Shown piece by piece: positions 1-61,742 of a stretch of 64,000 nt of DNA (the first letter of the stretch is position 1; the number at the start of each line of letters is the position of its first letter). A program made the position numbers and the translations under genes. Source of the DNA: Flaccisagitta enflata (Eukaryota); NCBI GenBank assembly GCA_965153355.1, contig OZ231126.1, positions 9,176,001 to 9,240,000 on the forward strand, read 5' to 3'. Under the pieces are notes generated by a model. That model saw only the letters and a program-made list of their open reading frames with translations. It did not search any database and was not told the DNA's origin.

Positions 1-10596
<10,596 letters not shown>

Positions 10597-12006
10597 TCTT
10601 CTCTCTGTTACCCCCTGGGGGTTCCAACAAGTGATCGTCTTAAACCTCTTCCATCTCCCATATCCCATGGGGGGTTCTAATCAGTGATCTTCCCCAAGTA
10701 TAATCTCTCCTTTCTCCTTTACCCTTTGGGGGTTTCTACAATTGATCCTCTCTCCCTCATTCCCTTCGCCAAGTCTAAAAAGATGATCCTGCTTTCCCCT
10801 CTGCCACTACTTCTACCACCTGGGAAGTTAAATCCATCCCGTGATAACATAAAGAAACAGGTCGCCCAAGGGCTATATGTGGTCAGCGATACCCGTTGCC
10901 CTGCTTTGAGTGATTGTGAATTGAATCAGTCCTAGGGCGAACAAAAGCCCAATCCAACGACCGAGAAAAAGACTTTGGACTGGTGCGAATGTGCTCTTTG
11001 ATCTTTTTCACTATTCATAGTGATGCAACACTTATATGTCATAGCGAGGGTGCCTTATGGTGGCGGCTGCCTTGATAGTTGACATGGCATATTATCAATT
11101 TGGTCGAAAATATGGAACTATGGATCATGGATGTATGCAACTATGCTTCCTAATTTGCACCGACTCCAGTTTTCTGATGCAACGGATATATCTAGTCACG
11201 CTTATTTAATCAACTTGCAACTGTTTACGTTACAACGATGATACCGTCTGTGGGAAGTGTTTAATATCTGCTCGCGCGCTCATCCCAAAGCTCCAAATCC
11301 ATGGTCGCCGATCATTTTAGTTCGGAAGGTTACGGCGTAGCGTCTAGCGAGTGTGGGTGTAATAAAAACTGTAATATGGCACCTTCCTTATCTCAGCGGC
11401 TGATTGATAACTCGTTAATAATTTTAATACAATGCAATGTCATTGTCATGTTCGTGGGAATTTCCGTCTGTAGTTAATCGAGATTTGTTAAAGAAATCGA
11501 TACAAATAAAACGCTTTATCTCAATTTATCACCGTCTTTTATTTTTCGAAGACGCCCTTCCGTGTGTCTGAATTCCAGCGTTCAATGAAAAGTTCGGTCA
11601 AACAACGAAGATCCATTTGACGATGACAGTTATTGTAGGGAGATACCGGTAAAAGATGTAAATGTTGTCGAGTTTCTTGTCAGTGGACGATACTTCCTCC
11701 GCGATTTGGGAAATCATGATTTCTTGAGACAAAGAAAACTAACAATTACGAAATCCAAATGACAATGTCACATTGACGAAATTTTGAGGAATTAGGGAAA
11801 AGCTTATTGCATTGTTTCATCGACGACTGTATTAGCGTCGATCGGGAATGATGCAGCATCAACCAAACCGACCGAACGCTGCCTTTATTCTGTGTCTATT
11901 GAATACGAACTTGATCTTAAACGCGCTAATCGCCTACGACTAGACAAAGATGGCGTTAATTGACGATCGTGATTGGTTAATCTCCCACATTCGTCACTGA
12001 TGTATA

Positions 12007-12410
12007 CAGATGGGACCCTAATAAGAGCGGAGGAGGGACCCAAAGTTTTAGCATCACCCCCTACAGCTTATACGGTTCAAGTAAATTTCTCACTTGTGGT
12101 GGCGGAATATACCTTAGGTGGATACAATTGGCGCCACTGTGGCAATTTTTTAATTTCCACCTAGAACACCTCCAAATTGTCAAAATTGAAGAAAAAATTG
12201 TTCGATTTTTTGGGGGGCTCCAGAGGGTGATTTGGTGAAATCTAAGGGTGTTCTAAGTGGAAATTCAAAAATCGCCACAGTGGCGCCAATTGTATCCACC
12301 TAAGGTTTAAACCGCCATAGCAAGTGAGAAGATTGCTTGAACCATTTAAGCTGTAGGGGGTGATGCTAAAACTTTGGGTCCCTCCTCCGCTCTTATTAGG
12401 GTCCCCTCTG
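12007..12410. mobile_element. Tc1/mariner-type MITE, palindromic
   Basis: CAG...CTG termini with TA on both sides (12005-12006, 12411-12412); inverted arms of ~165 bp starting GGGACCCTAATAAGAGCGGAGGAGGGACCCAAAG. Confidence 0.88.
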
Positions 12411-12426
12411 TACTTAAGAAGACGAG

Positions 12427-13757
12427 ATGGCGTTAATCGACGATCGTGACTGGTTAATCTCCCACATTCGTCATTGTTTCGTGACGAGTGACGAATCCGG
12501 ATTCTGCGAACACGTTTTAGGCAAAGACGAAGAATGGAAACGAATTATCGAGGATGATAAGGAAGAAGGAATCGGCAGACGAGGAGATCAACTTCCGGTT
12601 TATGCCAGGGGCAACGATGAAGGAGCCGAAGGTCGGTTTCGGAAGAAGTCGATTTGCTGAAATGTTGTGATTCGACTTCTTCCCTTTCTTCATTTCTTCT
12701 TCATATTATTGCCGTACTTCTAAAGCCGCGGTTCTATCCGCTTTTTCTTTTCATCTTCTTCTTCTTGTTCCATCTCTTCTACTGCCTCTTGTTTCGTTTG
12801 TCCTTGGTTTCCTCTGCCTTCTTCCTCTTCTTGCTTCCATCTTCCTCTTGTCGTTGTTGTTGTTCCTCTGCTCTTTATTCTTCTTCTCCTTCTTCTCCTG
12901 ACCCTTCCATGTTGTTGTTCTTCTTCTTTTTCTTCTTCTTCTTCGTCTTCTTCTGAGCCTTCCACGCTTCCCTCCCTTTCACCCAATCACACATCCAGGT
13001 TCTCCCCCATCTTCCCCTTTCCGTTGTCCGTCGGTGTCATCCTTCTCCTCCTTCCGTTCCGCCTCTTCCTCCGCATCCGACGCTGGCTTCGTGTTGCCTC
13101 CTTCGCCCGATTTGCATTTCGACGTTCGTCCATCTCCTCGTCCGACTCCCAACCGCAGCAGCCCGTCAGTCGGCGACGACAACGCCCATAAGTCACGACG
13201 AGTCCTTGCCTCTCGTCAGGCCGAGGCCGCCGCAAACTACGATCCCAAAATTGGCGATCAACTGTTTGTCAAAAAAGAACTGGAAGAAATCGATATAAAG
13301 AAGACGAAAACCGGCGGTGGTAGGACCGAAGGAACGGAGATGGTACGTTTTGTACAAACTTGCGCTTTATCAACGAGCTTTCCCGCGCATAAATGAATCG
13401 AGATCTCTCAAGTTTTAGCTAGTCATTGATTTTAGTGTAAGCTATTGATTGATTTCAACGAGGGCTATTGATTGAATTTAACGAGGGCTATTGATTGATC
13501 GATATTGCTAGACATTTAAGCCATTGATTGTCTTTCCAGGTTTCGTCGTTGCGTAAACTGTTGAGTGTGGCGGCTAAAATGCCAGCCAATCCATTCTTCG
13601 AATTCGTCCAATTCGACGGCGCTTCACATCCCGGACTGCCAGTCAAACGAATACACATATTCCTTTCCATGTGCCAAGGTAAGTATGGTCTGGATTCTTT
13701 TTCTTTCTTTCTTTCTTTCTTTCTTTCTTTCCTTCTTTCTTTCTTTCTTTCTTTCTT

Positions 13758-13796
<39 letters not shown>

Positions 13797-16700
13797 TTCT
13801 TTCTTCTTTTTTTCTCGTCCTGCCTTCTGTTTTTCTTTCTTTCCTCTTTCTTTTTCTCTCATTCTGCCTTCTGTGTTTCTTTCTCTTGTCCTGCTTTCTG
13901 TCTTTCTTCTTGTCTTCCAATGCTTATCATTCTATTTTAGTCGCGGACCTCAATGGAAGTAAGCCTTAATACCTATCTCCCTTCCTGCCTCATCATCGCC
14001 GTATTTCCAGACTTGTGACAATTATTTCAGGTGACGATCGATGGCAGCCGTTGGCGATCGCAGTCACGTGGACGGCCAAAGTTTCTGTGGGTGACTTGGA
14101 TTTATTTTTATTTTTAGTCGCGTGCTACGCGACTCTACACCTCGCTCTATCCGTCCGTCCGTCCGTCCGTCCGTCCGTCCGTCCGTCACACTTTACTTTT
14201 TTTCTTGGTTTTCGTGTTCTTTGGCCTCACTGCTGCCCAAATGATCAAGTGACCTCAAATACGGCCCCTGCCCCTCCGCAAACTGATGATATTGCTCCAT
14301 TTGTTAGGATCACTGTCTCTGGTGAGGCATAACCGGTATTCGACTGAATGTGTTCACTCCTACCATTTCTTATCAATTCAGGAACTGATCGGTCTCATCT
14401 GCCATCACTACATTCAGTCCGGTCGTGAGCCGAGTTTGAATAACTCCACTCCCGCCGGATATTCGCTTCACATGGCAGACGACGATGGCCTAGTCGAGGA
14501 AGACTTCGCACCCCTCGACCCTAGGTGAAAAGTGATAACATCATTTTACAGTAGAGCAATCGTAATATGTGTTCGCTTTTAGAACCTTATGAAGATATTT
14601 TATCCAGCTACCATTATCCGGATATTCTACCTAGTAGTTCTTTAATTTTGTATGTCTGTATAATCCGTATAATGATTGGGGGGGTCGGTAACAACGAACT
14701 TTGGAAATGCCAGTCGGACATATGACCAATGTGTGCACAAAAACGATATATAAACACATGTGAACGGAAAAAGGAGTCACACCATATCGTTTACAGTCGT
14801 GCCACACCCCTTATTTACATTGTAATGAATAGGGAGAAGGAAGAGGAAGAGGAAGCTCCTATACTTTACTATGGGAAAGGTAGGGTTGGCACGACTATAA
14901 ATGATAAAATCTCATGAACTTTTCCTTCTAGTTCTCAGGTTGTTTTGTGATTGCGAATGGTCTGGTGATATGTCCGATTGGCATTTCCAAAGTAGGTTGA
15001 TACCGACCCCCCCAATAATGATTTCCGCGAATTAAGGAGAGACTTTTGGCACTGCAGAACAAAGAAGAATAAGAAGCGCCATCGAAATAAATTGGTAGCC
15101 AGCATTAAGATCCTCATTTGCATATTGCAGTTTTACTTTAATAGCTCCCATATAATGACAAAAAAATAAAATTAATCAATTTGAAGTATGAAATCACATA
15201 GAAGAACAAGTTGGTGAGGTTCAGAAAAAAAGAACACTTTTGCATTTACAAAACTTATCAACACCATATCGTATATATTTTAGCCGCCCCTAAATGGAAT
15301 TGATATGTAAGGCAGGTAAAAAAAATTATTAGATGTGGTGGAATTGTCGGAGCTAGCTTTGTTGGAGCCGGCTTTGCTGCGAAAGAAATCTATCGGCTCT
15401 CCGGCTTATACGAGAATCACGTTGTTGCCTGTGTTGATGGTATTTTTCAATGTTTGATAATTCGTTCGCGGCCCGCTGTAAGGGAGGGGCTGATCTTTCC
15501 TACCATTGAGGTCAATCTCGGCAGCGTACGGGGAAAACCTCTGCCCCCGCCCCCTCCCCCCCCTCCACCGATAAGAACCAAGAATCTGGGAAGTACTTAC
15601 GTATAAATTGACTTGTATTGTCTTTTCGCAGAGAGCCGATTTCCAAGTTTGACTTTCCAAATTTGGCTTTAGTTGAACATGAACTGCCGCCCGAAGCCGA
15701 GGAGGAACCTCCCGCTATTATAACCGGTGAATCTTTAAGTGTCAAAAGATAGATGGTGCTTGTTTTTCGATATACAATTATACAGACATTCACTCATTCA
15801 TACACCTATACTTTCATTCACTCATTCTCTGGTTCACTTATCATTCATTCTTTGATTCATTCATTCATTCATTGATTTAAACACTCATCCATATCATTCA
15901 TTCACCTACTCTTTTATTCATTCGCGCTCTTCCATTCGTTACTGTTTCATTCATCCCATAACTGCCATTTCTCTCCATTATGTGTAGTTAATATACCTCA
16001 ACGTGGATGGGGGAAGATACAAGTGGAGAACGAGGGTCTCCTCATGCGAGACATCCTCAAAATCGTGCTGGAAAAGCGCCGCATCAGGGAAGGCCGCGGC
16101 CGCGAATACGGTTTAGCACGGGAAGACGACCCAGGTAGGTCAACTGGATAATAAATTCAATTTTGTCAGGCTAGGCCGCTATGGCGAATACGTTTTACCA
16201 CATGGAGATTACACAGGTGAATCAACTGAGTAAGTTTCATCACATCGACTGGATAAAAGATAAGGGGGCAGACCAGTCCAGATTATGGTTTAGCACGAAG
16301 AAGATCCATGTACAGGGCCGGGCTACAGGCTGACGGCTATGAGATTTTCTTATTAAGTCGCTAATGTCTCAACAAAACAGTCATTGTCTGCATTCGCATT
16401 CGCTCATATTCAATTGACCAATCTACGCAGAGCGGTTGTTGGATCTGGACCGTCCTTTGCGAGAGATGGGGACTCTGGAGTTTCGTTTGAAGCGATTGAA
16501 TTGTTACGATCCCGAGGCAGACTCCAACAACGCAGACGTCGACTTCAAGGCTCAAGATCATCAAGAACTGCTCTTCCCTTTCCCACTCCTCGGAGACGAC
16601 AGAAGATATAAAGTCGACATTGTCAAAAGAATTAAAGTAAGAGATTCTAGAATCGTGTGACTAGATGTGCCGATTCTGTGTGGCATCACTGGCATGTTGT

Positions 16701-20367: not shown

Positions 20368-23300
20368 ATGGAAGTGGGTGAAATGGCCTTTGTGACCTTG
20401 CTGAATGATATCGTGCATGTTGGAAGACAAAAAACAAGGTGAGATTCGATTTATTTTGCTGTTCTGACTGGTCTAAGTACGTAAGTTGGTCTGTCAGGTC
20501 ATCGACCAAAACTAATCTGTTTTCGGAAATCCATGGGCGTTCTATAATTGGCCATTTGTACGCAACTGGGTGTGTCTAACCGGAAAGTGCTAATAGTTTC
20601 CCCATTGCCGTTTCAGGTGGGAAAAGGCGAAAAAAGCTTCAACCTGCTTGACTGACGAGTCGTTCGCAAAGTTGCTTCTTGATCTACTACTGTACAAATC
20701 TATCCCGACAACTGGCATACAAGAGAAGAAGAAGATGAAGAAGAACGAGGAAAAGGAAGAGGAAGAACTGAAAAGAGACTTCAAAGAAGAGGACTGCGAA
20801 GAAGTTGATAGCGTCGTGAAGCTTCCTCTGAATAATGTTGTGGTAAAAACAGAGAATGTAGAATCGGTAGCTGTTGTCGCGGAAATGGTAGCCGATGAAA
20901 TGATTTCAAACGTCGCCGTCGATGCCCAAAGAGACACCAGATTCCCAGGCGTCGATGACCGCGCGCCCGTCAATCCTCTTGATACGACCGATGGACGTGA
21001 TAGTGACCTGAATGGGACTGAAACGAAGAGAGCCACGCGGAATCGGAATAAGATAAAACAGCCAATTATGACTATCAAGAAGGACCTTCCTCCTAAAACG
21101 GAAGTGAAAAGTGAATCCACGAATGATGTCAAAGCTGAAGTGCCAAAACGGAAAGGGGGTCGACCTCGCAAAATAAAAAGAGGACGACCGCCAATATACA
21201 CCAAAGAAGAGGCTGAGAAAGCCAAGCGAGCGCAATATCAAAGACAACGGGAGAAATACGAAATGCAAAAAGTAAGAGCATTGGGGACGAAAGAATATTT
21301 TTAGATGGGATCAAATTCGTATGAAAAGCGAAATTTGGTGATGAAAAAAAAACCAGGCCAACACCTTTTAGACGCGTGCGGTCGTCAAGACTAAAAGACA
21401 AAATGTAAAATGACTTGAAACGACGTAAAACGGCAAAAAAAGCAAACGCATACTGACGGACGGACGGACCGACAGATATAGCGGGTCGTAGAGTCGCTAC
21501 TAAAAAACAAAGGGAAAAGCAAAGTATGACGGACCAAGGGACGCAGGCGGTCTCTCCAACTGATTAAATGTTTTTTTGAGTCGCAAGCACGGGACTAAAG
21601 AGCTTAAGAGACGTATCTTTTTCATATCAGGCGGCTTGGAAGGAGAAATACAAAGAATATTTTGAAGTAAAGGGAGAAGAAGCCATTTGTCGTCTCTGCA
21701 AGTGCCGCTCAAGTTATGCAACAAACCACACTGCTTTAGGCTTTCATTTGCTCTATAGCCACGGTGAGTTCAGTTTCCAAGGACCTGTTAAGTGGTGACT
21801 TAAGTCACCTGTGAAATGATTTCAAAAACAAACTTTTTACAGGGAAGTGCAATAGGGACGGATGGGAGCCATTCCCCTTATCCAGTTGAGTGGTGACTTT
21901 GGTCACTTGCTTGCTTTAAAGTACAAATGTGTGTAACTTCCACGACGAACCTTCGTTTGTAACTTTCTTCACCATCATTGAACTGTTGCACCCATGAAAT
22001 CACTGGTGCTACGGCCATGGTCAAATAGCATACGATTTTTAATCATGATGATACAAATAGAAGAAGCGGGTTCATGCGCGTGCACGTTTTTTGGTAGGAC
22101 AACCCCATTACATAGCTTTTACAGGGAATTTTTGCAGGGATTCTTAAGTTCAGTCAAACATAGATTCTCCTTTCTCTGGTTTTATCCTAGGTTTAAAACG
22201 GCGTGGGGATTCTTTTCAACCGCTAGTTTGCGAAAACGGCTGCGATGAATCCATGAAGTTTTCTTTTTACAAAGATTATAAAGTACACAATGAGATATTT
22301 CACGGCTTGCCAGGTATAGTATAGTAGTAGTAGTTGTATAATATAGTAGGTTTTTACTTCACTATGGGATCTATGATATTAATCTCATTTCCCTTCTCTT
22401 GCAAACAGGGAGGAAGCTGAAAAATTTGAAAAAGGAAAAGAAGAAGAAAGATGATGCGATATGTCACATTTGTGGTGAAATCTCCCCTAGCATTTACCAT
22501 AAGCTGAAACATAAGCATAATGAGATGATCGAATGCACAGGTATGATTCTTTAAGTTACCATCTGATTAATGTTTCTATTTACCAGTTATGGCTAGTGTT
22601 CCGCTCGTATTCAATTTTTATCTTGAATTTTATATTTCTATTTGGCCCTGTGGTCTGAAATTTGAACATATGCACCAAAGGTGAGAAAAACGTATTTGGC
22701 TTCGTTTTTCTTCAGTTTGTCGTAAACTAATCCCGAAAAAGAGAATCACAATTCATAACAAAGTGCATCGGCGTGGGATTTGTCCATATCCTAACTGCAA
22801 AAAAGAATTCAAATCTGAGAACTTTCTCCAAACTCACATTCTAATGTAAGCACTAGAATAAAGAAAACGGCGGTTTCAGGATCGTTAAGTCAGAATTCTT
22901 GCGGCATTGGTATTGCTTGTAATGGTTTGATTACTTGGACTACATGAAGTCAATAAGTTTAAGAGCTTAATTTGTAACCATTGAAATTTTGATCTTCTCC
23001 ATCTTACAGTACACACAAACGGCACCTGCTGAAGTGGTATCGCTGTCCTCATTGTCCCAAAGCATTTCGTGTGAGTGTAAATCGTGTAATCCATTTTATA
23101 TTGAGTGGATTAGAAAATCCTCCGTCCACACCACTGAGCCATATTACATTAATTGCGCCTTAATTATAAATCAAAGTTTTGGTGTCGGTTAGTAAGGACG
23201 AATATGTGTCTTGTTTTTCAACTCCACTTTAATGGGAATGGACGGAATTTGGTTTGGGTTAGGGGTGGTGTAACGGATCAAATTAGGGGCGGGGTTGCGG

Positions 23301-24163: not shown

Positions 24164-46713
<22,550 letters not shown>

Positions 46714-47297: not shown

Positions 47298-50200
47298 ATG
47301 GTTCGAAATTATCGGCACGTTCGCCCTACCAAAGCCAAGAGAAAAGGATGTTCCGACGCTGCTAAAAAGAGATGGGCGATATTTCGAAGAAAGAAGCAGG
47401 CCAAAGTTGAGAATGTATCAGATGGAGTTGACAAGGGAGAGGGGGATGGAAATGTAAGTCTAGACGAAGTTGTGGAAGGAGAAGAGGGAAGCAGAGGAGC
47501 TTGCATATCCATTAGACCCATTTTTAAGTGCGTCCTCGCACTTGTATAAGAGGTCATATCTGTCGGACGTTTGAAATGCGCAAAACGGCTCATTCTGACA
47601 TATTTCTTCATTCCTATCACCTTTCATGCCTTACCACATGCATTTTCATTGATTCCTTCATTCATTTATTCATTTATTCATTCATTCATTCATTCATTCA
47701 TTCATTCATTCATTCATCAAAAACGTTCATTCACAAATTCTTAATCAAGCGAGGCGCACTTATTGGCCTTCACTTGGCCTTGCTTCCCGAGACTTTTGTT
47801 GCTTGAAAACATATGACAGTGCCATATTGTTGCAAAGACCATCTTCTTTCATTACATGTTGTAAAAAGAAAAAAAAGATTATAATTCTTGGCTCGTTTCT
47901 CGAACGGTGAAGGATAGGAAAATGAAAATAAAGCTGTAATAAAAAAAAAAAAAATCAAAATGAAAATTTTTAAAATCTGATTTCAGATTCAGATTCTTCT
48001 TGAAAAAGTATGGATGAATAGTGCTCTTCTTTTTAGTTGCGGACACTCAACTCTATAAGAAGCTTTGTCCGTCTGTTGGTCTGACCGTCCGTTTGTCCGT
48101 AATGATAGAGTCAAAAGGTGGGAATCCGCGCATTTCCGCCCCTGCCCACCCGTCCGCAACTGGTGGCCGTGTACTCGGCCTTGTTTTGATAATTCCACAA
48201 GAAGCCTTTCATATATTAAAAACAACTAACAAAAAGTGGATGTTCATTTGAAAGTTGATATGTCTCTCCGCAGGACTTTAAATTGGATGCTGAGCTGATG
48301 TTTGACCCTATCTATATCGGAAAGGAAAAAGAAAGGTATGCATTGTAATGGGATTTCGCAACAATATTTTAAATTGCATGCATTTTGTTTACTTCTCAGT
48401 TTGTCCCAGTTGCTATTTGCGATTTGGTTATTTTGGCCCTAACTTCAGGTGGGAGGCAGCAAAGTCGAGGTTATCCTGCTCTTCGGATGAAGATCTAGCC
48501 AAATTCCTCCTTGATCATCATTTTGAAGTCCCGCTGACGCAGCGAGATGGATGCGTGGAAGATGGAGCAAGCAGTGGGAATGATAGTGGCAGTACCAACA
48601 AAGATGGTGGGGAAGACGGATTTGCCGATGAAACGGAGAATAACCGCAACCTTCAAAGGGAAGACGTGAAGGTCGAGGGAGCGACGCGAGAAGCTGATAC
48701 CAAGGCACTACTAGAGACGTTTGAGATTTCCCTGCGTGAGGGTTTAGGGGAGTCAACGTCCTCATATTCTAACACGAACGTCAAGAAAGAAAACGGCGAC
48801 AGACTTCCGCCTAAGAACAAAATAACCAAATTGGGGAGCCCGCTCACCGAGTCAACAAACCTCGGTGGTATGGAGGATGAGGAGGAGTGTGTCGACGACA
48901 ATATGGACACTGTAATCCAGACTCCGTTATTGGAGGAGAAAGCAAGTGACGACATGAAATGTAACAAGAAGAGAAAAAGAGGTCGACCGAGGAAAGTGGT
49001 TGCACCGAGGGAGGAGGAAGAAGAAGAGCGGGAATTGGTCGACACTGGTATAGACTCAAACACAGTTTTACAACAACAGACTTGTCATAGAAGAACTGGT
49101 GCTCAACCCACGGTCAAGACTCCTTCACTGAAGGGGCATTTAAAGGAGAGTGGGACTGACGATGTGAAATGTAACATGAAGAGAAAACGAGGTCGACCTT
49201 GGAAAGTGGTTGTACCGAGGGAGGAGAAGGAAGAGGAGGAGGAGCAGCCACGTCATCGGCCAAGAGCCTGCAAGAAAGCATGTGCTGTAGACGTTGATTC
49301 CGTTCAAGATATGGACGATATGCATGAGGATGAAGAGTATGGGGGTGTTTCTAGTTAAAGAGGATCGCGTTTTGAAAGGGCCACTCGGTCGCTCGCTACG
49401 TTCATTCTCTCACTCCGCTCACTCGCTCCGCAGCGCTACGCTCGCTTTGCTCGCTCGCTCCGTTCACGGGCTCGCTCACTCACATCGCTCACTCCATCGT
49501 GGGACAGTTGAAATTCTTGAATATGTGTTCACACTGTTATCGCGTTTCACGGGAACAAACGCGTTTTTCATCTGAACTAGAAACACGCCCTATGACCCGG
49601 AATTCATTCCACCGCTCAATGAGGATGGATTGGTGAGCGAGAAGAAAGCAGCTATAGCTGGATTTCATTAGGCCTGATTAAATGACTGGTTTAATGAGCT
49701 GTTTTTGAAACTCAAATACCAAATATAATTTTTAAGGAAACATCTTTTTACTTTGTTAGGCCCTTGCAAGAAAGAATCTTTTGGATCATTTTGACGTTTT
49801 GTCCGAGACTGAGGTGGTTTGTCGTCGTTGCAAATGGCATTTATCCACCAACAAGACGATGGCTCTCTCTGGTCACTTAAAAAGTAGTCATGGTGAGCTA
49901 TTTCTGTCTCAATTCAGTGGGTTCAATCCAAGACTTTAACCTCGAATATTGACGACAAAAAACTACACCGTTGATCATGTTTAAGAGGGCTCAAACATGG
50001 AGTCTTACCTGAATTTGCAACCGCTTGGCTTAAAATCAAAGGAAATTTAGTTTTTTTTTTGTTGCAATTATTACAATCTCTGCATTGTACAGGCATTGTT
50101 CGAAATGGATCCATTTATGAACACTTGTTTTGCGATCATCCAAAATGTGATTCTTCGATCAAATTCGAGTCTTTTCAAGATTACCGAATTCACAATGAAA

Positions 50201-53200: not shown

Positions 53201-55863
53201 GTTGTCCTGAACCAGATTGTAACCAATCTTTCAAGAGTAAAAAAAATCTCACTCTGCACAGAAATACACACAAGACTATCAAGCCTTTCCAATGTATGTG
53301 GTGCGACTTTACTGGTAGGTTTATCTGAAATCCAGGTTGGTTTATTCCTTGTTCATGTTTAAAAGTTTTCTGAGTATGGTTTTGGCCAGTCTGTTTTTGT
53401 GGCGGTATGAAAATGCGCATTTGAGATGCCATGCGTGTGTCTGAAGTAGGGATGTGGAAGCGGTCAATTTTAGTGCCGCTTCCACCGCTTCCGCTTCCGC
53501 TTCCATTTTGTAGTACAAATACTAGTAGCTATCCCATCCTCCAAAACGGAAGCGGTCAATCACTTCCACATCCCTAGTCTGAAGGTTGGAGTATGGAGGG
53601 GGGTTATGTGTCCCTGCCCATCCATCCGCGACAAATTTATAATCCTACATTATTAGCTCCTTCACACATGGTATTTCTCAACTGTGGCCATCCACAGGCT
53701 ATTCTTGTTTGGCATGCATCAGTTGGGTGCTTCACATAGCAAAAGTTGGTTATTTCTTTTCACCCTCTTTATCTAATGCGGAGTGGTTAATTTTAGGACT
53801 CTTACCAGTTTTCTTTTATCAAAAATTGTTCATCTTTGGTTTTTTGTCCTCGACGATCAGTTTACGTCGAGGACTATAACATAGCCTTGATCGTGTAGTA
53901 AGCCGTTTGTTGTCGTCGTCGTGTCAACCCTTAAAAACTTGAGAACCACAACTCAGATGCTGATGAAACTTGGTCAGTGTTATTTTTAGAGCATTACTAA
54001 CCTGTGTACCAACTTTCAACAACATTCATAAATATTTAATACCCTTTGCCTATTATTTTTGTAGTAACATTAATTCCTGGACTTGTGCAATTTACATAGG
54101 GGAAGGGTAGTAAAGGTTCACCAATGTTGTTCAAACTTGTTGTGAAGGTTTATTGCATCAATTAAAGCTCCCCCGCAAGATTTCAGATAATTCTGAGTAT
54201 TGGTTTAGAAGATATAAGGCTATTTTGCTAGTAATATTAATTCCTGGACTTGTGCAATTTACATAGGGGAATGGTAGTAAAGGTTCACCAATGTTGTTCA
54301 AACTTCTTGTGAAGGTTCATTGCATCAATTTAAGCTCCCCTGCAAGATTTCAGTCAATTCTGAGTATTGGTTAAGAAAATATTAGGGTATTTATGATGTA
54401 TCTAGTAACATTATTTCTTGGACTTAAGAATTTTTTTTTTGAAAAAAATGTTTTGTTTTTTTTTTTTTTTTTTGAAATTTATTTTTTTTTTTTTTTGAAA
54501 TTTTTTTTTTTTTTTTGACTTTAAGGTATGCAATTGGTAGCCGGGTCAGACTGAGTAGCCGGGTCAGACTGAGTAGCCGTCAGACTGAGTAAGGTCTTGA
54601 ATTTAAAAAAATTTTTTTTAAATTTTTTTTAAATTTTTTTTTTTAATTTTTTTTTGAAAAAAAATAATTTTTTTTTAAAAATTTTTTTTGAAAATTTTCT
54701 TTGAAAAAAAGGTTTTTTTTTGAAAAAGCTTTTGAAAAAAATTTTTGAAAAATTTTTCTTTTGGACTTTTGTATGCAATTGGTAGCCGGGTCAGACTGAG
54801 TAGGGTCAGACTGAGTAGCCGGGTCAGACTGAGTAGCCGGGTCAGACTGAGTAGCCGGGTCAGACTGAGTAGCCGGGTCAGACTGAGTAGCCGGGTCAGA
54901 CTGAGTAGCCGGGTCAGACTGAGTAGCCGGGTCAGACTGAGTAGCCGGGTCAGACTGAGTAGCCGGGTCAGACTGAGTAGCCGGGTCAGACTGAGTAGCC
55001 GGGTCAGACTGAGTAGCCGGGTCAGACTGAGTAGCCGGGTCAGACTGAGTAGCCGGGTCAGACTGAGTAGCCGGGTCAGACTGAGTAGCCGGGTCAGACT
55101 GAGTAGCCGGGTCAGACTGAGTAGCCGGGTCAGACTGAGTAGCCGGGTCAGACTGAGTAGCCGGGTCAGACACCAAATAGACTACAGTCGAGGACTGTTG
55201 TTTTTAAGCTTTTTAGAAAATTGTTTTTGAGGACCTAATTTGCATAATGCAGTGGGATAAAACAATATGCTGACATTCTTTGAATTAGCTTTTATCAATT
55301 TCTATTCTTCAATGAATTGTTGATCTGCCTCTTCATACGCTCTTTCATAGCTAATGATCTGATATTTTTATTTATTATTACAAATATTATGATTTCTTGA
55401 GATAAATCATTGCCCTTTTATTACCGAAATTACACAGGATTTTACTGAATTCTGGGAAATCTGCGGAAACTTTAAGGCCAAAACAAAAACAGAAGATAAA
55501 GGAATTTTGAAAAAAGGAAAATGGTCATCTTTATGATTTTTGTTCCTCCATATTCCCCCAGTAGGGTGAGAGGATACTCCCAACTTTTGCTATATGAAGC
55601 ACCCAAATGCATCAGTAATTTGATCAGGTTAAAACTTGTTTGATGCCCCAGGTGTTCAGTATAACAACATCCGATCGCATGCTTTAACCTCGCACAAATT
55701 GGAATTTCAAAAAGCTCGAGAGAAGAGGGAGAAGTATTGGCGTCGTACACCTGGCGTTGATGTTGGAGAATTGCCTTTTGCTGGCGTAGACAATGAACAA
55801 TTGCCATCTGCTGGTGTAGACAGTGCAGAAATGCCATCAGCTGGTGTAGACAATGCACAATAG
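47298..55863 (+). CDS. ZF-C: paralogous AT-hook/BED-like/C2H2 protein; the reading frame is continuous only if the MITE-derived intron 49337-49580 is spliced
   Basis: Exons 47298-47453, 48274-48335, 48449-49336, 49581-49632, 49760-49892, 50093-50215, 50479-50685, 52616-52745, 52848-52908, 53143-53314, 55652-55863. All downstream exons are open and phase-matched to ZF-B. Confidence 0.75.
49341..49590. mobile_element. 250-bp TIR MITE (PIF/Harbinger-like, 3-bp TSD) inside a coding exon
   Basis: TIRs GGGGGTGTTTCTAGTT / AACTAGAAACACGCCC match 15/16; TAT duplicated at 49338-49340 and 49591-49593; (CGCT)-rich core. Confidence 0.88.
53447..53576. mobile_element. 130-bp hAT MITE
   Basis: TIRs TAGGGATGTGGAAG / CTTCCACATCCCTA; 8-bp TSD GTCTGAAG. 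Confidence 0.9.
53845..55200 (+). mobile_element. HINE-like element, family 3, carrying an 18-bp satellite (GAGTAGCCGGGTCAGACT)n
   Basis: 5' hairpin GTCCTCGACG...CGTCGAGGAC; 3' end ACAGTCGAGGACTGT; about 21 near-perfect 18-mers at 54781-55170. Confidence 0.7.
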
Positions 55864-59305: not shown

Positions 59306-61742
59306 ATGGAAGTTGGCAAGGCTGCTTTTGTTACCTTGCCTGATGAAATTGTGCATGTCGGGAGACAAAAAAAGAGGTAAGATCAATACTTGCCAAAATT
59401 GTTTACGTAAGATGGAGGGCTGACGACCCCATGATTAAACGATAAGGGGGGGGCCTAATTGGCTCAATTTTTTTTCAATCAGAAGTTTTTGCAGCGGAAT
59501 ATCAGAAAACAGATGAAGGGTAAGGCGCTTTAGATCCTATCTAGGTTTTGTGATTTGATTATCCCAATTGGCCCAACCAGCCTGATGACCTATTTGGATT
59601 GAACTTGATAAAGAGTCTCTGAAGGGAAGAATTTCACATTTGTGAAAGATAAATTGAGATTTGAGCGTGCTAACTGGCCCAGCCTACTTAACTGGCTTAC
59701 TGGCCTTAAAGTAAATGTGCATAACTTGGGAGCCTTTCTACCAATTTAGTTGAATTTTGATGTGAAGTATTCCAATGGGAACTGGCCTACCATCCAACTA
59801 GCCCACTGGCTCAGTGAAAAACTTGTGTAGCTTTGTCATGTTTTACAAAAGGGCCTAATGCAAAATTTGCTCTGAATGAATGTGTATTTTCCTCCTATCT
59901 CAGGTGGGAGAGGGCCAGGAATGCCTCTTTCTGCGTTACTGATGAGTCTTTTGCCGAAATGCTACTCGACCTGCTTCTTTTCTTACCTGTACCAAGATCA
60001 AAGGGAGTTGATGGAGATAAAGAAAAACATGGCAATGAGGGACTGGATGGTGCCAGAAATGAAGAGTGCGGTGATGAACCAAAGCTTATTCCTGTTGACT
60101 GTGTGATGAAAACGGAAAAAGCTGAATCGGCGACAGTAATTGCAGAGAAGGTAGCCAGAAAATCATTATCTAACAATACCAAAGATATCCAAACCAGCGC
60201 CCGAGCCCCAGCCGTGCAAAACATTACTGAGTCTGGTATAAATGGCCTTACTGACAACCAAATAGACTCAAATGTGTGCAGTGATCCCTCTGTTGATAAT
60301 GGTGATATTTCTAATAATGAAACAAAGGAAGCTGCATGCATAGATGACAAAATCTTGGAAATCAACTCCAAGTGCAAAGATGAAGATAATGCCAGCAATG
60401 TGGATGAAGTGAGCATGGTGGATGTGGAGGTAAAGGATAATATGAGTCACAGGAGTGATCCAGGGAAGGTGCTTGTGCGAAAAAAGCGTGGTCGACCAAG
60501 AAAGGGAGGTGACAGAATCTTGATGATTGACTCCAAGTGCAAACATGAAGAAAATGCCAGCGATGTGGAAGATGTGAGCAAGGTAGATGTTGAGATAAAG
60601 GAAAATGAAGGCTGTGATCCAAGGGAGGTGCCAGTGCGAAACAAAGGTGGCCGGCCTCGAAAAAAGGAGCAAAAAAGGGGGAGACCTCGAAAATATTTCA
60701 GCAAAGAAGATGCTGAAGCAGCGAAAAAAGAGCATGTACGAAGACAACAGGAGAAGGACAATTTAAAACAAGTAAGATGTTAATTCCTATCATCGAAACC
60801 CTGACTCTCCACCATTGTAGAAGTGTCATCGCTTCTTCTGCTGGATTGCATAAGGTCACTAAGGTTTGGTGACATACCCAACTATCTGGTGCGCCATAAC
60901 CATGGCCAAAAAAAAGAAAGAAAGAAAAAGAAAGAAAAAGAAAGAAAGAAAGAAAGAAAAAGAAAGAAAAAGAAAGAAAAAGAAAGAAAGAAAAAAGAAA
61001 GAAAGAAAAAGAAAGAAAAAAAAGAAAGAAAAAGAAAGAAAAAGAAAGAAAAAGAAAGAAAAAGAAAGAAAAAGAAAGAAAAAGAAAGAAAAAGAAAGAA
61101 AAAGAAAGAAAAAGAAAGGAAAGAAAGGGAAAGAAAGGGAAAGAAAGGAAAAGAAAGGAAAAGAAAGGGAAAGAAAGGAAAAGAAAGGAAAAGAAAGGAA
61201 AAGAAAGGAAAAGAAAGGAAAGAAAGGAAAAGAAAGGAAAAGAAAGGAAAAGAAAGGAAAAGAAAGGAAAAGAAAGGAAAAGAAAGGAAAAGAAAGAGAA
61301 AAGAAAGAGGAAAGAAAGAGGAAAGAAAGAGGAAAGAAAGAGGAAAGAAAGAGGAAAGAAAGAGGAAAGAAAGAGGAAAGAAAGAGGAAAGAAAGAGGAA
61401 AGAAAGAGGAGGGAAAGAGGAGGGAAAGAGGAGGGAAAGAGGAGGGAAAGAGGAGGGAAAGAGGAGGGAAAGAGGAGGGAAAGAGGAGGGAAAGAGGAGG
61501 GAAAGAGGAGGGAAAGAGGAAGAAAAGAGGAAGAAAAGAGGAAGGAAAAAAAAGGAAAGAAAGAAGAATTGGATGTTCTTCGCGGTTTTTAACCTTTGCA
61601 TTACCAAGCAAGCAAACAGTTGATCTATGTAGTGATGAGCGTGGACACTTATGAGTTGGACCACATTACTTTAAAACAAAGTTGCACCAAAGGGGAAGGG
61701 CTGATTCTGTCCTTCATGCGTGTCTGTCTCTCTCTCTCTCTG

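Follow-up and report, generated by a model that had tools for sequence, protein, structure and literature searches.

Why does a gene carry its own beginning twice, with a transposable element in between? The question is raised by a stretch of 64,000 nucleotides (nt) of the Flaccisagitta enflata genome (contig OZ231126.1, positions 9,176,001 to 9,240,000; hereafter the window, with all coordinates counted from its first letter), in which the start of a gene for SIN1 (MAPKAP1), a protein known from structures of mTOR complex 2 (mTORC2), is found in two copies on the forward strand, separated by a miniature inverted-repeat transposable element (MITE). The upstream copy forms an open reading frame (ORF) of only 16 codons, whose product is the same as the first 16 residues of the gene proper. 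Such an arrangement may be a device maintained by selection, or it may be a scar. We favor the latter explanation, with a probability of roughly three in four (0.75): the window most likely represents a derived insertion allele of SIN1, in which the 52-nt repeat is a product of break repair, and the 16-codon ORF is a by-product of the same history rather than a selected device.

The repeated gene start

The direct repeat is 52 nt long (see Table 1 for the coordinates of all features), and its two copies are identical at 49 positions, the longest exact stretch common to both being 23 nt. A blastn search inside the window recovers the match between the copies at E 3e-18. The three mismatches (copy 1/copy 2: T/C at 11961, T/C at 11973, and C/T at 11997) are all third-position transitions, and all are synonymous, with codon pairs ATT/ATC, GAT/GAC, and CAC/CAT, respectively. 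The small ORF, from the ATG at 11950 to the TGA at 11998-12000, translates to MALIDDRDWLISHIRH, followed by a stop, and these are the same 16 residues that open the ORF starting at 12427. The two diverge at codon 17, where copy 1 has TGA and copy 2 has TGT. As the A of this TGA is the first base of the 5-nt filler to the left of the MITE, the stop codon was created by the junction. The repeat itself, the identical 16 residues, the three synonymous differences, and the replacement of TGT by TGA were all noted in a preliminary description of this DNA, and each is confirmed here base for base. An extension of the repeat upstream, to approximately 11935, was considered, based on a relaxed alignment with two gaps, and found too weak to claim a 65-nt duplication. 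Further upstream, an ATG-ATG pair at 11848 opens an ORF of 31 codons in the frame of the SIN1 start, ending with a TAG at 11941-11943, just before copy 1; with a transcription start farther upstream, this ORF (11848-11943) would be added to the ORFs preceding SIN1.

An allele with a single copy

As to the existence of a form of the gene without the insertion, four public sequencing runs were compared over positions 11700-13700, keeping in mind that coverage holes and depths in such runs prove little. These are raw reads of polyA RNA from the same organism (X24), contigs from the same organism's DNA (X1), a marine metagenome from a study other than the organism's own runs (X3), and a metatranscriptome (X9). 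One contig of the marine metagenome (467 nt, depth 5.44) joins 11825-11973 to 12451-12726 without any extra letters, skipping exactly 477 bases, with 149 reference bases to the left of the joint, 276 to its right, and 23 letters that fit either side. The allele represented by this contig possesses one 52-nt copy, no MITE, and no fillers, and its native 5' flank is followed directly by the start codon and the rest of exon 1. The 477 bases added in the window, all within the first 17 codons, are composed of the TA-flanked MITE of 404 bp, 17 bases of filler, and a second 52-base copy. A fusion error between the copies is not the source of the joint, because the longest exact run that they share, 23 nt, is shorter than the word length of the graph assembly behind the contigs, which we take to be 31 (k = 31). 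The contig differs from the window by 5 of the 149 letters upstream, and by 18 letters and 5 gaps over 12451-12726, none of the differences listed for the latter segment being located before 12621; given these differences in the flanks, it must come from a separate haplotype or from a close relative. The metagenome depth of 4.31 in the bin 12437-12503 is wholly accounted for by this same contig, and no right junction of the insertion type was seen in the metagenome.

The insertion form is represented in the DNA of the organism itself, in which a contig spanning 12385-12473 (depth 146, with the neighboring single-copy contigs at 94-166) bridges the end of the MITE, the 12-nt filler, and copy 2. 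The single-copy joint was found in none of the other three runs, and the lack of such an empty-site joint among the organism's DNA contigs would fit a specimen carrying the insertion form only. When metagenome contigs were scanned for the 23-nt core that is invariant between the copies, 0 matches were obtained. As a gene start does not arise duplicated, the insertion form is derived at some level. Moreover, this copy of the MITE is off its family at only 2 of 408 positions, versus a divergence of several percent in the flanks; by this comparison the insertion appears to postdate the separation of the haplotypes, which favors the empty form as ancestral.

An intact SIN1 gene downstream of the element

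The gene downstream of the MITE is an intact-looking SIN1/MAPKAP1. Over its first 32 residues, the downstream ORF aligns to residues 1-32 of human MAPKAP1 as found in mTORC2 structures (E 0.0016), and the N-terminal positions that anchor the human protein in Rictor are recognized, Ala2 and Asp5 being identical and position 3 being occupied by Leu instead of Phe. The CRIM domain is detected with confidence (Pfam PF16978, E 1.2e-12, 48.5 bits versus a cut-off of 27.2 bits), and its exon, placed at 14253-14525 or, more narrowly, at approximately 14370-14525, matches MAPKAP1 201-250 in the PDB (E 6.5e-12). The match to RBD_SIN1 (E 0.0041, 17.5 bits) is under the 27-bit cut-off, and no match to the Pfam PH domain was found among the 41 ORF pieces scanned, single exons presenting short queries in both cases. 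Exon 1 alone matched no Pfam family, and, when longer proteins were searched for homologs of exon 1, 12 candidates were obtained, none at E <= 0.01. A metatranscriptome contig, beginning only at 13280, joins 13341 to 13539 with GT..AG ends, and therefore SIN1 is transcribed and spliced in the sea. A TTC-rich low-complexity tract, in which reads were skipped, occupies 12690-12960 in the intron following exon 1.

The exact N-terminus of SIN1 is a structural requirement. In a preprint on mTORC2 at 3.2 Å (bioRxiv 10.1101/2020.04.10.029835), the SIN1 N-terminus is described as sitting in a deep cleft between the AD and HD of Rictor, with acetylated Ala2 and Phe3 buried in Rictor and with Asp5 forming salt bridges, while the addition of 1-3 residues before the N-terminus disrupts assembly. 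Residues 6-33 of human SIN1 are described there as two helices lying on Rictor, and its N-terminal stretch as far as residue 137 as winding over Rictor and mLST8. The statement of the preliminary description that the extreme N-terminus inserts into RICTOR agrees with this account. With the exact N-terminus needed for assembly, only an allele rebuilding the exact start would persist.

The element between the copies

The core of the MITE is 404 bp, and its inverted arms (12005-12170 and 12247-12412, 166 nt) are 91% complementary. It possesses the characters of the Stowaway-like MITEs of the Tc1/mariner superfamily: a TA target-site duplication, terminal inverted repeats, a small size, and many copies. 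It had been described as a TA-flanked mariner-type MITE; the TA flanks are indeed there, and these, along with the CAG...CTG ends, would fit the Tc1/mariner superfamily, but the narrower label of "mariner-type" goes beyond what the data allow and remains a guess. The element belongs to a highly repeated family. The summed word depth over 11968-12436, which is not a copy number, is between 5e4 and 7e5 in the organism's DNA, versus approximately 1e2 in the flanks, and it is raised in the metagenome and the metatranscriptome as well. Other copies of the family stop matching at 12003/12005 on one side and at 12412/12415 on the other, which places the ends of the element at the TA flanks and both fillers outside the element. 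The two letters nearly unique to this copy, compared to the family, are at 12333 and 12341. No second copy of the MITE is present within the window, and a scan of metagenome contigs with a 30-nt MITE end produced 0 matches. A search of the whole window against Rfam, at the gathering score, also produced 0 matches, with no known microRNA or spliced-leader RNA family found.

The 52-nt repeat is not a target-site duplication made by a transposase, because the element has a TA duplication of its own and because 5 and 12 nt of filler intervene; the repeat neither abuts both ends of the element nor has a length typical of the superfamily. A separate observation concerns the polyA reads, approximately 100 of which match the inner part of the MITE only (12236-12302) and then continue into one common unrelated sequence. 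A loose end at 12258 is shared by 96 of the reads, and the letters at 12277 and 12280 differ from those in the window. It would seem that an abundant transcript encoded elsewhere in the genome includes a fragment of this MITE family.

Possible origin of the insertion allele

In the insertion allele, copy 2, along with the remaining part of exon 1, keeps a complete SIN1 with the exact N-terminus, and so the gene survives. Copy 1 is most likely the orphaned original start, still positioned on the native 5' flank and closed by the junction TGA. Two routes toward this structure can be proposed. In the first one (Route A), whose chances we place somewhat short of even, a tandem duplication of approximately 71 bp, with a filled junction of 19 nt, would occur first, followed by canonical entry of the MITE at a TA of this junction. 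According to the second one (Route B), for which we would give closer to one chance in three, the MITE would be captured in one step at a break, together with a few bases of its donor flank, and the staggered ends would be filled in. Neither a local template for the filler nor an intermediate allele, which might have discriminated between the two routes, was found. The search for a local template for the 19-nt junction filler revealed only two 9-mers within 6 kb, in GAA/TTC-rich low-complexity DNA, with 0.5 expected, and these were not accepted as evidence of templated synthesis. Unequal crossover between two allelic MITE insertions, which would place a MITE between allelic copies, was rejected, neither junction matching the single-copy sequence. 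Tandem duplications with filled junctions are reported to result from end-joining of aborted recombination intermediates (Kamp et al., 2021; PMC8654963). A repair duplication that rescued the gene was among the possibilities originally suggested for this locus, and it fits the data, as a single-copy, MITE-free allele exists and the duplicate restores the complete SIN1 ORF.

Expected effect on translation

As positions 11825-11947 correspond to the native 5' flank in the single-copy allele, the native promoter now faces copy 1. Both SIN1-type AUGs (11950 and 12427) have a purine at -3 and a G at +4, the purine at 11950 being an A. Three more AUGs (12000, 12010, and 12363) are found after the small ORF and before the SIN1 AUG, and the MITE is computed to fold as RNA to -297.7 kcal/mol. 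A transcript originating at the native promoter would meet, in this order, a strong AUG, 16 codons and a stop, three AUGs, a stem of approximately -298 kcal/mol, and then the SIN1 AUG. A leader of this kind, from what is generally known about scanning, should nearly abolish translation of the downstream ORF. Translation of SIN1 from the insertion allele should be sharply reduced, unless a downstream transcription start, a cis-splice site, or a trans-splice site is used. One candidate for such a bypass would be a transcription start seeded near copy 2, and another would be the right end of the MITE, which is 71% pyrimidine and terminates in AG, potentially acting as a cis- or trans-splice acceptor.

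Evidence to the contrary and alternative explanations

A number of observations weigh against the interpretation of the window as a repair-derived insertion allele, and the first group of these concerns the junctions. The left junction, from copy 1 to the MITE, is bridged by no listed contig, and it is known from the assembly of the window. The single-copy form is represented by one contig, in one of the four runs, at a depth of 5.4, and this contig may originate from a sibling species, in which case the label "polymorphic" is not proven. No intermediate allele, with the duplication and without the MITE, was found in the four runs. The unbridged left junction would also suit an artefact of assembly, in which two haplotypes, one with the MITE and one without it, were falsely joined. 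Two haplotypes do appear in the vicinity: over 11700-11810, a contig from the organism's DNA and the window disagree at 6 of 111 nt, which points to another, fairly divergent haplotype immediately upstream, and this contig is followed by a hole at 11811-11965. However, coverage holes prove nothing, and the contig that joins the end of the MITE to copy 2 includes the 12-nt filler, which is absent from the single-copy allele; an insertion allele of a non-trivial kind is therefore real. Moreover, copy 1 has its own letters at three sites and its own 5-nt filler, and a simple join of haplotypes would create neither. Therefore, we consider an artefact very unlikely.

The letters of the single-copy contig also raise the possibility of a reverse polarity, with the insertion form being the older one in the lineage, and with the single-copy contig being a revertant that resulted from recombination between the 52-nt copies. 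The contig is copy-1-like on the left and copy-2-like on the right, as a crossover product would be, and the joint is located within the longest identical run of 23 nt. However, such a letter pattern arises by chance in one of four cases. In addition, the flanks of the contig are diverged by approximately 3% (upstream) to well over 10% (intron), versus approximately 0.5% for the MITE when compared to the family majority. We consider this scenario unlikely, and we continue to regard the insertion form as the derived one.

The second group of contrary observations concerns the differences between the two copies. If all three changes occurred in one neutral copy, then the probability of all three being synonymous is 0.007-0.037, depending on transition bias. 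For sites 2 and 3 only (11973 and 11997), the letters of the single-copy allele can be deduced, because the leftmost position of the joint follows 11973, with a freedom of 23 letters. Both are T, which is the copy-1 letter at site 2 and the copy-2 letter at site 3. It follows that at least one change took place on the copy-2 side, and only one or two took place in copy 1. Changes on the copy-2 side are synonymous because only synonymous changes survive in a working SIN1, and for copy 1 the chance of an all-synonymous outcome is 0.19-0.33 in the case of one change and 0.035-0.11 in the case of two. It appears that the differences are distributed over both copies, and, judging from these letters, there is no case for selection acting on the 16-residue peptide. 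The preliminary description had cautioned that three substitutions are too few to prove selection; the caution was right, and the split across the copies removes most of the apparent signal.

The extent of divergence presents a further difficulty. The copies differ at 3 of 104 nt, versus 2 of 408 for the MITE and its family (Fisher p = 0.059), and with this higher divergence between the copies, a single recent event alone is inadequate. This comparison mildly favors a duplication that predates the arrival of the MITE, or else a contribution of letters from another template at the time of the event. A Poisson test in which the repeat divergence was treated as a known rate (P = 6e-4) was replaced by the fairer Fisher split test.

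The third group of contrary observations concerns expression. If the specimen is healthy and homozygous, then the allele is not null, and the predicted block in translation must be bypassed; such a bypass is likely if the specimen carries only the insertion allele. In the polyA RNA sample (6% of the run), depth was zero on 11700-12101 and on all the SIN1 exon bins. The 132 reads placed, all of them partial fits, are on the MITE or on 12705-12771, and they originate from MITE-like sequence elsewhere.

The same features are relevant to the proposal of a selected translational attenuator, in which the upstream ORF and the long hairpin would tune down the dosage of SIN1, and thus of mTORC2, and in which this effect would have kept the allele. 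The AUG at 11950 is in a strong context, of the same kind as the main AUG, the hairpin is positioned between the two AUGs, all three copy differences are synonymous, and the organism's DNA presents the insertion form only, all of which would agree with such a role. A regulatory upstream ORF with a hairpin had been suggested in the preliminary description, and, given the strong AUG context and the stable stem, it is plausible in physical terms. However, the feature is missing from the single-copy allele, the one other allele seen, and so it is not conserved. The differences seem to be split, with only one or two in copy 1, and a hairpin of this size is expected to block translation rather than tune it. 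Overall, a selected attenuator seems improbable. Even less can be said in favor of a decoy peptide, another suggestion of the preliminary description, i.e., a 16-residue product that, with its Met removed and its new N-terminus acetylated, would fill the Rictor cleft and modulate the assembly of mTORC2. The peptide is the same in both copies, and it does include the human anchoring positions, Ala2, a hydrophobic residue at position 3, and Asp5. However, 16 residues correspond to a small part of the human SIN1-Rictor/mLST8 interface, as described in the structural report (bioRxiv 10.1101/2020.04.10.029835). The small ORF is absent from the single-copy allele, and its transcription is not apparent in the 6% of the polyA run that was sampled. 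We consider a decoy extremely improbable. More generally, there is a slim chance that the duplication is something beyond a scar. In that case, a break caused by the MITE, or located near it, in the first codons of SIN1 would have been repaired so as to restore the exact N-terminus, and the allele, perhaps homozygous in the sequenced animal, would have persisted because the upstream ORF is translated and, along with the hairpin of approximately -298 kcal/mol, sets the dosage of mTORC2, or because an acetylated ALIDD... peptide competes for the Rictor cleft. A bold variant of this idea would be that long duplications of the flank, with the gene start preserved, are a regular product of this MITE family.

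Comparison with known systems

The usual cut-and-paste insertion of a TA-targeting element leaves only TA. The SIN1 element resembles known polymorphisms of Stowaway-like (Tc1/mariner-type) MITEs in its small size, lack of coding capacity, long inverted arms, TA flanks, and very high repeat depth, and also in its position at the 5' end of a gene, where it is present in one allele and absent from another. Unlike in the usual MITE insertions, it is bracketed by a 52-nt host duplication, set off by 5 and 12 nt of filler, and it interrupts the first coding exon without loss of the ORF. The locus is also reminiscent of the duplications attributed to polymerase-theta end-joining, which are short and direct, have extra letters at their junctions, and need no transposase (Kamp et al., 2021; PMC8654963). 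The duplications described in that study range from approximately 100 bp to 10 kb, were found in repair-defective Caenorhabditis elegans, and have junction letters that are non-templated or form a patchwork. In contrast, the SIN1 unit would be approximately 71 bp, the animal is a wild one, a MITE is present in the junction, and the repair route is one that we infer.

Another parallel can be drawn with leaders of the GCN4/ATF4 type and with leaders containing stable hairpins, as in both cases a strong upstream AUG, a short ORF, and a very stable stem precede the main AUG. Upstream ORFs of the GCN4/ATF4 type and hairpin leaders are conserved, and they provide tuned repression of cap-dependent scanning. 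Stable hairpins reportedly repressed cap-dependent scanning in the experiments by Kozak. The SIN1 case is different in that it is an insertion scar missing from another allele, with a stem far above scanning tolerance, and it would resemble such a leader in action only if transcribed.

Finally, the translation initiator of short 5' untranslated regions (TISU), SAASATGGCGGC, has been described for mammals as an element located within 30 nt of the transcription start site that also aids transcription, with its last two positions falling within the part essential for YY1 binding (PMC3177215, PMC2518114). Of the 12 positions of SAASATGGCGGC, 9 are matched in the context of either SIN1 start (11946-11957 and 12423-12434), among them AAG/GAG-ATGGCG, and the last two are among those that do not match. 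As ATGGCG simply encodes Met-Ala, this likeness is a weak lead. If the 5' untranslated region of SIN1 is very short, a duplicated TISU-like start might bring along its own transcription start.

A limited literature search on MITE insertions, upstream ORFs, and hairpin leaders revealed no matching case described, which provides thin grounds for a claim of novelty. What the locus presents is an insertion allele of a MITE, accompanied by an unusual duplication of the flank that saves the gene, and as such it is a new instance of three phenomena: the insertion polymorphism of a transposable element, the repair duplication, and the accidental upstream ORF. It presents a natural example of a coding exon that survives a transposon-associated break, with a duplicated start that keeps the structurally required exact N-terminus. 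If the allele is common, it would provide a natural case of a hypomorph, or of a bypass, for mTORC2 dosage in a marine planktonic animal. The allele would also serve as a natural test of how the cell handles a hairpin of approximately 400 nt in a leader. There is also a warning for annotation, as the first ATG followed by a perfect SIN1 N-terminus is not the gene start in the insertion allele. Beyond these points, the SIN1 allele is an ordinary insertion polymorphism.

Features of the locus and other observations in the window

Table 1. Features of the SIN1 locus, in window coordinates.
Feature	Position	Strand	Basis or remark
Native SIN1 5' flank, presumed promoter-proximal region and 5' untranslated region	11825-11947	+	Metagenome (X3) contig joins flank to single repeat copy and exon 1
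Repeat copy 1, probable orphaned original SIN1 start	11948-11999	+	From position -2 to second base of codon 17; 49/52 versus copy 2
16-codon ORF MALIDDRDWLISHIRH and junction TGA (TG from repeat, A from filler)	11950-12000	+	Translation
Left junction filler, 5 nt	12000-12004	.	Outside repeat and MITE family; single-copy allele lacks it
Palindromic MITE with TA flanks	12005-12412	.	TA 12005-12006; core 12007-12410, CAG...CTG; TA 12411-12412
Right junction filler, 12 nt	12413-12424	.	In-frame TAA at 12415-12417; no clear local template
Repeat copy 2, working SIN1 start	12425-12476	+	Continuous with rest of exon 1
SIN1 exon 1, coding part, 69 codons	12427-12633	+	Putative donor AAG|GTCGGT at 12633/12634, read from sequence
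SIN1 exon 2, end	13280-13341	+	Donor 13341/13342; metatranscriptome (X9) contig joins 13341 to 13539
SIN1 exon 3 (part)	13539-13680	+	Metatranscriptome (X9) contig
SIN1 CRIM-domain exon, approximate borders	14370-14525	+	PDB and Pfam matches
SIN1 Ras-binding-domain exon, approximate	16014-16148	+	Weak Pfam RBD_SIN1 match

Other features of the window include four long ORFs on the + strand (20597-21301, 24611-25726, 48306-49358, and 59818-60783) that represent one repeated gene family, with an N-terminal motif of the F/LRWEKAK...C.TDE.FAK.LLD type and with AT-hook-like KRKRGRPRK stretches. The first of these ORFs (20597-21301) has no Pfam match at E <= 0.1, and the family may represent domesticated or mobile DNA-binding genes. 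Long micro- and minisatellite arrays are found at 3300-3830, 13690-13930, 36560-37420, 45200-45850, 54640-55230, and 60800-61670, including GAAAGA-type and CT-type arrays and arrays with units of 24 to 30 nt, and one of the arrays is located within a SIN1 intron.

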